IMG/VR virus record: IMGVR_UViG_3300021138_000014
Location: 1-64,000 of that record
DNA: 64,000 nt
Reading direction: 5' to 3' (one strand)
From: a virus
Within the stretch, counting starts at the first letter, position 1. The number at the start of each line of letters is the position of its first letter. Below the pieces are notes generated by a model. It saw only the letters and a list, made by a program, of their open reading frames with translations, searched no databases and was not told the DNA's origin. This document shows positions 4,886 through 13,535 of the stretch, piece after piece. Both the position numbers and the translations under genes were made by a program.

Positions 4886-5100
4886 TGAGTGACCTAGAGA
4901 TTGCATTCCTTAACACAGAGAACAATGGATTGACCGTAGATCAAATGGAAGAGATCACTGACGCCATAGATCTTGCCAACACAAACCGCGGGTTTGAGGA
5001 GGCTTGGGAGGCTATTCGAGTCTTATCACGAGCCTTGGATATAGATCTTTACTTCCCCGCTAGTGACGTTTACCCCAAGCCAAAGGAGATAGAAGTATGA
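4885..5100 (+). CDS. hypothetical protein
   Basis: AAGGAG RBS; TGATG coupling. Confidence 0.7.
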   Translation: MSDLEIAFLNTENNGLTVDQMEEITDAIDLANTNRGFEEAWEAIRVLSRALDIDLYFPASDVYPKPKEIEV

Positions 5101-5480
5101 AGCGCTGGTTACCTGTAGGAATTCGTGTTAGCACTGAATCTGATCGATCAGACAGCCTGATTGGGTTAAACTTTGAAAAATGGCGAATGCATACCCCATT
5201 TGGGTACGAGCTTCATAAAGAAAACATTTATGAACCCTCAATTAACGTAATGTGGCGTAAATACTCTTTGTGTATCGAATTTCGATACATAAAAGAATCA
5301 GAACGTTGGGCGTGGCTCAACTCTGATGAAGATCCAGAGTTATTCAATTACGTATTGAAGAAGGTTTTTGGACCTAAAAAGGGGATTGAGGAAAGCATCG
5401 ACCCTGGAATTGAATATGAATACGAAGAGGAGGAGGAGGAGGAGGAGGAGGAGGAGGAGTCAAATGACCCACTTGAATGA
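5097..5480 (+). CDS. hypothetical protein with poly-Glu tail
   Basis: AAGGAG RBS; ATGA overlap. Confidence 0.65.
   Translation: MKRWLPVGIRVSTESDRSDSLIGLNFEKWRMHTPFGYELHKENIYEPSINVMWRKYSLCIEFRYIKESERWAWLNSDEDPELFNYVLKKVFGPKKGIEESIDPGIEYEYEEEEEEEEEEEESNDPLE
5427..5459. repeat. (GAG)11 perfect microsatellite
   Basis: Direct reading. Confidence 0.95.
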
Positions 5481-5661
5481 AAATACTAAAATGAAACCAG
5501 ATCCCTGCATTATGTGCGGGGCCGAAGCCCGGCGCGTCAGTTTCAAAGCCGAGATCTACGAATACTTTGCCGAGGGCAAATGCTTTACCTGTTACATGAA
5601 ATTCGATACCGTTGCTTGGACACCCAAGCACGCCAAGGGCACCGCTGGTAGCTGGAACTAG
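5464..5661 (+). CDS. zinc-finger hypothetical protein
   Basis: Probable start MTHLNE after the GGAG repeats; CIMC...CFTC. Confidence 0.6.
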   Translation: MTHLNENTKMKPDPCIMCGAEARRVSFKAEIYEYFAEGKCFTCYMKFDTVAWTPKHAKGTAGSWN

Positions 5662-5677: not shown

Positions 5678-5845
5678 ATGACACAGAACGGATGGACGGA
5701 AAACGATGGGTTCTTGTACGCGGATTGCCTAAAGTGCAATGATCGTACGGTACACATTGTGCTTAAACCAAAGGAAGGTTTTCCACCGTACGAGTGTGTG
5801 CAGTGCACATTCAACTGGGAGAGAGTAGAGAGTGAGGGTCGATGA
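5678..5845 (+). CDS. 55-aa zinc-ribbon protein (MTQNGWTENDG...)
   Basis: Read manually; CLKC...CVQC; ATGA overlap with MTase. Confidence 0.6.
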   Translation: MTQNGWTENDGFLYADCLKCNDRTVHIVLKPKEGFPPYECVQCTFNWERVESEGR

Positions 5846-6567
5846 AAGCCGTTTCATTATTTGCTGGTGTAGGTGGGTTTGATCTTGCGCTGCACCGAGC
5901 AGGTGTTGAAGTTGTTGCGTCATGCGAAATTGATAAGCATGCACGCGCTGTATTAGAAAAGCAATTCCCAAACGTTCCACTAATCAACGATGTAAAGGAT
6001 GTGACAGGTGATCAACTTAGAGAACTCGGATTCGAAGGTTCTAACGGAATTATTGTCGGAGGATTTCCATGCCAAGATTTGTCCGTTGCAGGAAAGAGAG
6101 CCGGACTTGCTGGAGCTCGATCTGGACTCTTCTGGGAAATCTGCCGTATCCTCGAAGAAACGCAAACGAAGTGGTTCGTCCTCGAAAATGTCCCTGGATT
6201 GTTGTCATCCAACAACGGAGCAGACATGGGAACCGTTATCCAAGCGTTGGTTGAGCTCGGGTATGGGATCGCCTACAGGATTCTTGACGCTCAGTTCTTC
6301 GGAGTCCCCCAGCGTCGCCGTCGAGTCTTCATTGTTGGATGTCTTGGAGACGACGGGCGATCACCTGCAGAAGTACTTGCTCTCATCGAAGGCATGCGAG
6401 GGCATTCTGAGAAGAGCGACAAATCGCGGAAAAACTCTACCTTCGCAACTCCACTCAGCACTTCAGGCGAGGGCAGAGATGTAGCGAACACGATCTCGGC
6501 TGAGTTGTATCACCGATCAACGATCGTCAATCAGGATATTAATAATGGTCACCTCGTGGTGGGTTAA
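5842..6567 (+). CDS. C5 cytosine DNA methyltransferase, N-terminal polypeptide (motifs I-VIII)
   Basis: SLFAGVGG, GGFPCQDLS, ENVPGL, PQRRRRVFIVG. Confidence 0.92.
   Translation: MKAVSLFAGVGGFDLALHRAGVEVVASCEIDKHARAVLEKQFPNVPLINDVKDVTGDQLRELGFEGSNGIIVGGFPCQDLSVAGKRAGLAGARSGLFWEICRILEETQTKWFVLENVPGLLSSNNGADMGTVIQALVELGYGIAYRILDAQFFGVPQRRRRVFIVGCLGDDGRSPAEVLALIEGMRGHSEKSDKSRKNSTFATPLSTSGEGRDVANTISAELYHRSTIVNQDINNGHLVVG
6008..6484 (+). CDS. nested out-of-frame MTase beta-type polypeptide (M.EcoHK31I beta-like)
   Basis: GTG start with AAGGA RBS inside the MTase gene, +1 frame; C-terminal SSLLDVLE...KYLLSSKACEGILRRATNRGKTLP. Confidence 0.7.
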   Translation: MINLENSDSKVLTELLSEDFHAKICPLQEREPDLLELDLDSSGKSAVSSKKRKRSGSSSKMSLDCCHPTTEQTWEPLSKRWLSSGMGSPTGFLTLSSSESPSVAVESSLLDVLETTGDHLQKYLLSSKACEGILRRATNRGKTLPSQLHSALQARAEM

Positions 6568-7285
6568 AAGTCGGAGAGCGCAAAGCGTTCACGACTTTGA
6601 GACATGGGTAGCGGAAGGAGTAGTGCCGACATTGAATGCATTCGAGAATAACGGAGACACACGAGCAACAGTTCTTGTGTTTTACAGCGGTACGTTTGGT
6701 GAAGTAAGAATTCAGGGAAAGGTGATTAATACGTTGCCAGCAAAAATGGGTACAGGCGGTAATAACACACCGATGGCTGTCTATCCGATTCAGGATGGTC
6801 GCGAGATGGAGAAGAAACAAAACGGTCTTGGTTTAGGAGAAGATTCTGCACCTGCTTACACAGTTGATACAACTGGTGGGCAAGCGGTAGCGTATCCAAT
6901 CCAAGGAACGATGGTTGGTCGTAGTGATACGGCTGGCCCTAATGGAAAAGGTTATGGGGATGTTCAAGATCCCATGTTCACTATGGATACTGTTGGAGGT
7001 AATGCTGTGGCAATGGTTGGTAACTTTGAGCTTTACGACTTTCCAAAGGAAGAAGTATCACCAAGCCTCAACGCCCGGCGGGCAAAGGACACGATGGTAT
7101 ATGAAGATGTGCCGTCAATGGTTCGCCGCCTAACTCCTATGGAGTGCGAACGCCTTCAAGGATTCCCAGATAACTGGACAGAAATCGGATCCGATTCTCA
7201 ACGTTACAAGCAAATGGGTAATGCTGTTGCTGTGCCTGTTGTTGAGTGGATCATTAATCGGTTAGTGGAGGTCAATAACAGATGA
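6545..7285 (+). CDS. C5 cytosine DNA methyltransferase, C-terminal polypeptide (TRD-like repeats, motifs IX-X)
   Basis: RRLTPMECERLQGFPD, RYKQMGNAVAVPVV; AGGA RBS. Confidence 0.88.
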   Translation: MVTSWWVKSRRAQSVHDFETWVAEGVVPTLNAFENNGDTRATVLVFYSGTFGEVRIQGKVINTLPAKMGTGGNNTPMAVYPIQDGREMEKKQNGLGLGEDSAPAYTVDTTGGQAVAYPIQGTMVGRSDTAGPNGKGYGDVQDPMFTMDTVGGNAVAMVGNFELYDFPKEEVSPSLNARRAKDTMVYEDVPSMVRRLTPMECERLQGFPDNWTEIGSDSQRYKQMGNAVAVPVVEWIINRLVEVNNR

Positions 7286-7431
7286 CACTAGCAACATTTA
7301 TTTACTGGACGATCCTGTTGGGAACGTACTACATCTTTGCAATTGGAATTTACATAATCTTGCGATTAACTGGTATTACCAAGTTATTCCCTCAACCAGT
7401 ACAGGCGGTGCTACATGATCTCTTCTTCTAA
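7282..7431 (+). CDS. 49-aa membrane peptide (MTLATFIYWTILLG...)
   Basis: Read manually; GGAGG RBS, ATGA overlap, hydrophobic. Confidence 0.6.
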   Translation: MTLATFIYWTILLGTYYIFAIGIYIILRLTGITKLFPQPVQAVLHDLFF

Positions 7432-12083: not shown

Positions 12084-13535
12084 CTACTCTTCTATAACTC
12101 CTTTAATTATCTGGGTAGTTTGCTCTTCTGTTAGTCCTCCATTAGGTATTTCGTTTAGATTTTTAGCCTTCTCTCCAAAGATCTGTGACAGTACGCCAGC
12201 ACTTCCCTGACGTTCAACAGTCATCCTAATAAACTCTCTTGAATCGTCCAATTCCTTAACAATTTTGAGTAACTTAAAGAGGCGATCAACCTCTTGGGAA
12301 AGGTTTGGATCAGCGTAGCCGCCGTTCAGTTCTTCCGCAAACCGCATAAAAGCAACGCGCTGGGCTTGCATTTCAACCATTGCATTGATTAAACTCTTAA
12401 GTTGATCTTTAGTCTTTACCGCAACTGGTAATTTAAATGAGCACACAGATTGAGGTTTAAAAGCGGGGCAATTAGCTGCAACAAAACATGTATCGCATAC
12501 ACGCAAACTGACCTGCTGTGAGTGTACGGTCTGTACATCTTTGATGGTTCCGTCTTCATCAATTTCAGTTTTTACTTCGTAACCGAATACTGGTAAGTTG
12601 CCCATTTCAGCCTCTTCACGAGCCAAAAGTTTCCGCATCTCTACCCCTTTCCTATCATGTATTTGAGGGGTAGTTTCCACATAATCCTCACCTAGTGGAT
12701 CATCAAAACTATCATGATAGGAGTTCTTATCCATGGTCATCCTTTGTTCTAATTGGTCAAATGACCATAGTGCCAAACGACAAACCTCTTGGGCGTCGTC
12801 TTCCATAATCAAATCAAAATTTAAACCCGCTTTTTCAATTGTATTTTTATGTCTAGATCGGGCTTGCTCTTTCATGTCTTTTGGGTACCGTACAAGGCGG
12901 TTGTTATCCCAAAGAATAGTTTCCCCGTTCATCATAGGCGATAGCCATGACAGGGTTGTAGCGCTCTGTAGGGGCACCTGACGGGTGTTATCTGGGCGGG
13001 CTATACCCAACCCATGAAAACGCGTCCCGTCGACTCTAGCGTGCGTCTGAGTGGCTCCAGCAAGCCATGTAGCGCTCTCTAGGGAGTCTCCTGAGATGCC
13101 AATGTCTAGGTACTTGGATGTAAGATCAGCAAGACCTCGTTGCCCAGTTTCTGGGCGCCAAACGGGAAGGAACTTTGACGGGGGGAGTTCTGCCCAAACT
13201 GTGTCTCGTTGGTTCTGGACAAAGTCTTTGCTTATCTGTGAGTGATCAACCTCGGTGTAACGATAAATGGCGTCGATATTCTCAACCACAAACTCTTCGT
13301 AATTGGCGGCAAATTCTTCCAATTCATCCTTACCAAGTAGTTGCTTGCGAGGAATTCCAGGGTGTACAAAGACCTTTACCTCTGGCTCAAAATAGTTTTC
13401 AATTAAGTATGCCTTGGTTTTTGGTAAACCACGCTTCACTAAACGCCAATAACTCAATCCCATATATTGGACATTGGCTGATCCTAGAAGTAGGCGATTA
13501 GAGGGTACCTCAGCACCCAAGTAAATAAATTCCAT
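12084..13535 (-). CDS. TGT/DpdA-like TIM-barrel (degenerate active site) fused to Cys4 and helical C-terminal region
   Basis: PVWR, IGISG, RFHGLG, SATTLSW..P..NGET pattern; CDTC-x5-C-x8-C. Confidence 0.5.
   Translation of the reverse strand: MEFIYLGAEVPSNRLLLGSANVQYMGLSYWRLVKRGLPKTKAYLIENYFEPEVKVFVHPGIPRKQLLGKDELEEFAANYEEFVVENIDAIYRYTEVDHSQISKDFVQNQRDTVWAELPPSKFLPVWRPETGQRGLADLTSKYLDIGISGDSLESATWLAGATQTHARVDGTRFHGLGIARPDNTRQVPLQSATTLSWLSPMMNGETILWDNNRLVRYPKDMKEQARSRHKNTIEKAGLNFDLIMEDDAQEVCRLALWSFDQLEQRMTMDKNSYHDSFDDPLGEDYVETTPQIHDRKGVEMRKLLAREEAEMGNLPVFGYEVKTEIDEDGTIKDVQTVHSQQVSLRVCDTCFVAANCPAFKPQSVCSFKLPVAVKTKDQLKSLINAMVEMQAQRVAFMRFAEELNGGYADPNLSQEVDRLFKLLKIVKELDDSREFIRMTVERQGSAGVLSQIFGEKAKNLNEIPNGGLTEEQTTQIIKGVIEE

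Follow-up and report, generated by a model that had tools for sequence, protein, structure and literature searches.

How is a DNA (cytosine-5) methyltransferase put together when its locus consists of three open reading frames (ORFs), one of which lies out of frame inside another? The question is raised by the one C5 methyltransferase locus found in a stretch of 64,000 nucleotides (nt) from an uncultivated freshwater phage (IMG/VR record IMGVR_UViG_3300021138_000014, positions 1 to 64,000), which as a whole we call the window. ORF A (5842..6567; 241 amino acids, aa), ORF B (6008..6484; 158 aa) and ORF C (6545..7285; 246 aa) all lie on the plus strand, as do the other features of the locus given below. 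B, which has a GTG start and a TAG stop, is read in the +1 frame and is wholly contained in A. A and C overlap by 23 nt in different frames, and B and C share a frame, in which a single TAG (6482-6484) and 20 sense codons lie between them. An initial annotation of this DNA had described the three ORFs, with B nested in A, and all are present as it described them.

On balance, we favour as the best explanation of the locus as a whole that it encodes one orphan phage DNA (cytosine-5) methyltransferase assembled from three separately translated chains. Chain A would be the catalytic large domain, chain C the target-recognition half, and chain B a small protein that belongs to that recognition half.

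A probable chain B and the recognition half of the enzyme

ORFs A and C share out the motifs of the C5 methyltransferase family. A matches positions 1-169 of the 324 positions of the Pfam profile PF00145 (expectation value, E, 2e-57, above the cut-off) and holds motifs I-VIII, whereas C matches positions 263-323 (E 1e-16), holds motifs IX and X (7085-7267) and also matches phrog_16528 (E 3e-34). The motif residues of A (F-x-G-x-G, P-C-Q, E-N-V and Q-x-R-x-R) are invariant in alignment A1, as are, in alignment A3, the C blocks R-R-L-T-P-x-E-C-E-R-L-Q-G-F-P, in the motif IX-X region, and G-N-A-V. ORF A is 59 to 83% identical to its counterparts in 16 IMG/VR loci. After motif VIII it continues into a poorly conserved linker and a tail past the B stop (6484..6564), which holds one recognition-region-like unit and codes in the A frame only: across L005-L012 the A frame is conserved there, and the frame shared by B and C holds stops in relatives. 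The recognition region of C is itself modular. Its relatives in alignment A3 vary by whole blocks of 20 to 70 residues, present or absent like cassettes, with the flanks and motifs IX-X nearly invariant around them.

No motif of the family lies in B as far as profile comparison can tell, and its connection with the enzyme comes from natural fusions. In one 354-aa protein (P0124), B, the recognition region, motif IX and motif X form a single chain, which aligns with the B of the window at 49% identity over 152 aa (E 3e-34). In an IMG/VR gut-phage contig (L024:2317-3793), a 430-aa ORF reads B, the recognition region, motifs IX and X and then, still in frame, motifs I-II. This ORF lies in the +1 frame relative to a second one, of 212 aa, which it overlaps and which has motifs IV-VIII only. 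This permuted layout occurs in about 40 of 80 related gut-phage loci (L023-L102), and a single chain with a nested B in 32 of them. Where the layout is permuted, a complete enzyme requires translation of both frames, with the chain initiated at the B start codon. On account of these in-frame fusions we assign B to the recognition half and do not regard it as an independent protein.

The part of B that matters would be its C-terminus. AlphaFold2 gives no structure for residues 1-105 (predicted local distance difference test score, pLDDT, 45 to 53), which are probably disordered in view of this model, and a three-helix module for residues about 115-158 (helices 118-123, 127-140 and 146-157; pLDDT 94 to 98), predicted alike for B alone and within the fusion P0124. 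The contrast between an unstructured N-terminus and a folded C-terminus agrees with the gradient of selection along B that is described below. Taking the model together with the synonymous-site and frame-conservation data, we place the conserved module at residues about 109-158 (6332..6481). Its consensus is LL-D-V-L-E ... KY-L-S-x-KAC-x-GILRRA-x-x-RGK-x-LP-x-x-L-x-x-AL; B had first been taken to end at ...GKTLP, and in fact extends 14 residues beyond. Upstream of this block, the apparent motifs of B are the +1 reading of A motifs IV, VI and VII-VIII, and therefore carry little information on B function.

From these elements a mechanism can be proposed. Chain A would supply the catalytic large domain with motifs I-VIII, and chain C, starting at its own ATG, the modular recognition units and motifs IX-X. 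Translation of chain B would begin at its internal GTG, served by a ribosome-binding site of its own, and would read the DNA of A motifs IV-VIII and the linker in the +1 frame, yielding a long, weakly constrained N-terminal stretch followed by the strongly conserved three-helix module. This module would most likely sit at the A/C junction, at the start of the small domain, and may help the small domain to assemble or to be positioned on DNA. We infer that B binds A and/or C and is needed for methylation. That B is a chain of the enzyme is, from the sequence evidence, probable, and a heterotrimer is the most likely reading, given that B is found naturally fused to the recognition half. As for the suggestion in the initial annotation that subunits might be swapped, we found no evidence for it.

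Several points weigh against a three-chain enzyme. The single-chain Dmt of phage P1 and the single chains of L016-L020 hold motifs I-X in one frame, so that B may be an accessory. The first 65 or so codons of B are nearly free of extra constraint (synonymous third-position difference in A of 0.401, against 0.446 before the overlap), which leaves the need for a whole 158-residue protein unexplained. Finally, family and structure databases offer no sequence match to B: no Pfam family was found for B alone or for the 48 members of alignment A2, the B profile had 0 matches at E<=10 among all PDB sequences, and its comparison by hhalign with E. coli Dcm 296-338 was not significant (E 0.19, probability 0.3%). 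This Dcm segment, just past motif VIII, is the best alignment of the B block and is at the expected place, the likeness being one of position only.

Other searches with B were equally silent on its function. A fold search (VIA-align) with the P0124 model returned only helical-hairpin noise (best Z 4.1, none >=5), and the ESM Atlas matches of B were unnamed phage clusters only. According to the initial annotation, the locus appeared to carry two motif-IX-like elements. This did not hold up: comparison of the B and C profiles by hhalign gave no motif IX match, the sole alignment covering 13 unrelated columns (E 0.42), and motif IX lies in C.

The rival that survives best accepts that B is translated and denies that it is a structural chain: B could regulate how the methyltransferase is expressed or how active it is, or it could do a separate job and be encoded in the same DNA only so as to be co-expressed. 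The selection evidence is compatible with it, as it speaks for coding and not for any given function; the main chain of single-chain relatives contains motifs I-X without B, and the module, modelled as basic and helical, could bind nucleic acid on its own. Against it stands the in-frame fusion of B with the recognition region and motifs IX-X, seen in P0124 and in about 40 gut-phage loci; fusions of this kind are the usual signature of parts of one machine. Moreover, B was found solely inside C5 methyltransferase genes, in every locus examined. We regard a non-structural B as unlikely, and the other three alternatives as less likely still.

A stronger form of the three-chain reading can also be formulated, which we put forward tentatively and are inclined to doubt. 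The three-helix module of B would be an obligatory docking piece that joins the constant core A to an exchangeable, cassette-built C; the overlap would tie the amounts of the chains to each other; and B would be an ancient, phylum-spanning gene that most members of the subfamily need, P1 Dmt included.

Open frame, start site and selection of ORF B

Given the amino-acid sequence of A and the codon usage of the window, the probability that the +1 frame remains open over the 159 codons concerned is 2.7e-4; the +2 frame has 6 stops over the same stretch. The observation is repeated in distant lineages. In the window, L014, L016, Mycobacterium phage Dove, Caulobacter phage DMCA, coliphage P1 dmt and Vibrio phage 234P10, the +1 frame has 0 stops over 154 to 175 codons, as against 5 to 11 stops in the +2 frame of each, and the per-lineage probability of an open frame, calculated from the A protein and the local codon usage, is between 6e-5 and 6e-2. 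The corresponding +1 stretch in dcm of E. coli contains 5 stops.

A start site is conserved as well. In the window, a Shine-Dalgarno-like AAGGA (5995..5999, by reading of the sequence) stands 8 nt ahead of the GTG, and a TGA one codon ahead of it. In all 20 usable loci the B frame is open for 158 to 162 codons from the conserved GTG, with a stop one codon upstream. The Shine-Dalgarno sequence is kept in all relatives, and in L014 and L015 it reads AAAGAGG despite a D to E change of the A residue. Interruption by stops in homologs had been named at the outset as grounds for dismissing B; we looked for such stops and found none, the B frame being open in every relative examined.

Selection was assessed by two measures. 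The synonymous third-position difference in A is 0.446 before the overlap, 0.401 in codons 57-120, 0.304 in codons 121-172 and 0.118 in codons 173-213, so that the constraint imposed by B increases towards the B C-terminus. The second measure compares both frames over the same nucleotides, from motif VIII to the end of the B block. Pairwise identity among 78 distinct loci averages 0.587 in the B frame versus 0.432 in the A frame, and the B frame is the more conserved in 97.3% of 3003 pairs, although the A stretch includes motif VIII. By these sequence comparisons, B is shown to be a coding frame under purifying selection. The hidden gene is very probably real, and by extension would be translated in the window phage.

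Two observations on the nucleotide sequence itself can be set beside this. Positions 6045-6408 of the window are 72.6% identical to Mycobacterium phage cluster J (for example L001:1501-1864), with the identity confined to the dual-coded stretch, the window phage having a GC content of 45%; and the depth of metagenome contigs peaks at 6259-6411. Both fit a freezing of the DNA by double coding across distant phages.

The distribution of B is broad. Its profile matches 7,934 cluster representatives at E<=1e-3 (1,213 at E<=1e-30), 140 predicted proteins of 86 to 277 aa match B, and B itself matches phrog_16143 (E 7e-9). Members of this nested family have a +1 ORF of about 150 to 170 codons lying over motifs IV/VI-VIII and ending in the conserved block (alignments A2 and A5), an arrangement that we find in mycobacteriophages of cluster J, Caulobacter phage DMCA, coliphage P1 dmt, Vibrio phage 234P10 and a Ruminococcus phage, and thus in phages of Proteobacteria, Actinobacteria and Firmicutes; the methyltransferases of these phages are of one subfamily with that of the window. 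The nested ORF is unannotated in the records of Dove, DMCA, P1, 234P10 and the Ruminococcus phage. The main chain is single in the P1, Vibrio, Caulobacter and Ruminococcus phages; Dove has two annotated methyltransferase genes, its halves being in the same frame with a stop between them. Among plasmids, the tblastn matches of B were mainly to dmt genes like that of P1, and none was to a restriction-modification locus of the EcoHK31I kind.

The question then is whether the block is expressed from the B start at all. Ribosomes might instead reach it by a programmed +1 frameshift from A, past motif VIII, to produce an A-B fusion isoform. The near absence of constraint on the 65 N-terminal codons of B would be understandable in that case, and five proteins (P0004, P0022, P0062, P0094 and P0117) do unite the A N-terminus and the B C-terminus in one ORF. 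These five, however, are singletons that lack motifs VII-VIII and look like indel variants, resembling the products of 1-nt deletions, though the two distant ones, P0004 and P0062, share their junction, a frame switch directly after E-N-V-P. Moreover, in 86 distinct loci the first start codon of the open +1 frame lies a median of 109 codons ahead of the B block (ATG in 53, GTG in 32, TTG in 1) and is mostly accompanied by a Shine-Dalgarno-like motif (73 of 86), the median open length of the +2 frame being 18 codons. Homopolymers between motif VIII and the block do not exceed a length of 5 in any of 69 distinct sequences, and the permuted and fused architectures require initiation at the ATG of B itself. 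A frameshift is therefore improbable.

Still less probable is that B is untranslated, its openness and conservation being a by-product of the conservation of A motifs IV-VIII or of some constraint at the nucleotide level. It is true that the N-terminal and middle 'motifs' of B are a mere +1 reading of A motifs, and that B has a low recognition score in the ESM Atlas. Yet the constraint peaks after motif VIII, where A is least conserved; the openness is improbable given the A protein and is absent in dcm; and about 40 loci have motifs IX, X and I in this very frame, which must therefore be translated in them.

The split between A and C

The initial annotation had asked whether an indel at the A/C junction might simply have broken one gene in two, and had noted that sequencing reads could settle the matter. 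Contigs from three freshwater runs, none of them the likely source, extend over 6297-7227, 6222-7227 and 6242-7074 without a gap, and so cross both the B stop and the A/C junction. When A alone was used as a query, 17 IMG/VR loci were found, 11 of which (L005-L015) show the same split as the window and have C in the +1 frame, while 5 (L016-L020) encode single chains of 372 to 488 aa. The A proteins of the 11 split relatives are 64 to 83% identical to that of the window. The position of the A stop, and so the length of the A tail, varies among them, and each has an ATG of its own a few codons before the conserved K-S-R-R-A-Q block at the start of C. In the single-chain relatives the segments corresponding to the A tail and the C start are contiguous. 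Compared with its split relatives, C has a ratio of non-synonymous to synonymous substitution rates (dN/dS) of 0.06 to 0.10, with the synonymous rate dS saturated.

The idea that an assembly error divided a single gene into A and C, or that this gene died recently, could appeal to the single chain of the nearest outgroup (L016-L020) and to the fact that one 1-nt change would give the observed frame relation, but it is already refuted, as far as sequence data go, by the indel-free contigs, by the 11 relatives with the same split, by the dN/dS of C and by the ATG placed just ahead of the conserved C start in every one of them. Together these data indicate that the split is real and old, and that it is neither a sequencing error nor a recent pseudogene.

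How C is started can be considered from the same data. In the window, an AGGA (6533..6536, by reading of the sequence) lies 8 nt ahead of the ORF C ATG, and the evidence on A and C favours a separate, coupled initiation of C. Read-through of the TAG from B into C was considered and rejected: no tRNA gene was found in the window, TAG closes 8 of its 56 long frames, most split relatives have at least 2 stops between B and C, and it is the A frame that is conserved in this interval.

Known systems, significance and genomic context

Two bacterial enzymes offer a comparison, in both cases by description. The first, M.EcoHK31I of E. coli, was reportedly described originally by Lee, Kam and Shaw in 1995. 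It recognizes YGGCCR, and its small chain is encoded inside the large-subunit gene in another frame, both chains being needed (PMC2836561, PMC3404938). Motif IX, missing from the large chain, is said to come from the small one (PMC2836561, PMC3404938), and the small chain tolerates N-terminal truncations to a degree (PMC2836561). B of the window is similar in being wholly nested in A, in the +1 frame and conserved in all relatives, and the tolerated truncation has a parallel in its weakly constrained N-terminus. Unlike M.EcoHK31I, the window enzyme has its motif IX in C, with no detectable likeness to motif IX in B, and it has the additional split between A and C. M.EcoHK31I is the only precedent for a nested chain that we found in print; full-text literature searches brought up no account of the present nested gene in phage methyltransferases.

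M.AquI of Agmenellum quadruplicatum (CYCGRG), the second enzyme, is encoded by two consecutive genes, the second of which holds the rest of the variable region and motifs IX-X (PMC3404938). A and C are divided in the variable region in the same way: A ends in one recognition-region-like unit and C begins with further units. In contrast to M.AquI, for which no nested third chain is described, the window has one, and its A and C overlap by 23 nt in different frames. The idea that the locus combines an AquI-like split with an EcoHK31I-like nested gene in an alternative frame, as first proposed from the sequence, is thus borne out by the layout of the ORFs and by the PF00145 matches. An analogy of gene architecture only, as proteins and function are unrelated, is provided by the phage spanin genes Rz/Rz1, in which an interacting second chain in the +1 frame occurs in embedded, overlapped and separated architectures (PMC3556154). 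B likewise shows several layouts (nested, fused into C, and permuted).

Long same-strand overlapping genes that are selected in both frames are rare in bacteria and phages, and usually disputed. Here the overlap is about 480 nt and lies within a textbook enzyme family that includes the dmt gene of the model phage P1, which makes it directly testable. Thousands of phage methyltransferase genes retain this nested gene, which annotations almost always miss. If B is required, the single-chain annotation of many phage "orphan methyltransferases" is wrong, the annotated ORF could fail or show altered specificity when expressed alone, and codon-optimised or recoded versions would silently destroy a second gene. 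With the window, a three-chain layout (A, nested B and separate C) joins the single-chain, B-C-fused and permuted ones, and the series is natural material for studying the evolution of overlapping genes and split enzymes.

The virus record from which the window is taken is linear, 82 kb long and about 86% complete. The stretch is present in 24 freshwater metagenome runs, and no RNA run is among the sequencing runs that carry it. The window also encodes a ribonucleotide reductase, a DNA polymerase, RecA and a baseplate wedge protein. ATGA overlaps couple the methyltransferase genes tightly to their neighbours on both sides, a 55-aa ORF with four cysteines and no Pfam match upstream (5678-5845, plus strand) and a 49-aa hydrophobic ORF downstream (7282-7431, plus strand).

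Elsewhere in the window, a second case of overlapping frames is seen at 5097-5661 (plus strand), where a run of at least 12 glutamates in ORF 5097-5480 becomes, in the overlapping ORF 5368-5661, a run of arginines, the underlying sequence being a simple GAA/GAG repeat. On the minus strand (12084-13535), a 483-aa protein without a Pfam match at E<=1e-3 matches phrog_887, queuine tRNA-ribosyltransferase (E 5e-55). This protein may act in 7-deazaguanine DNA modification as a DpdA-like enzyme, in which case the phage would own a second DNA-modification system.

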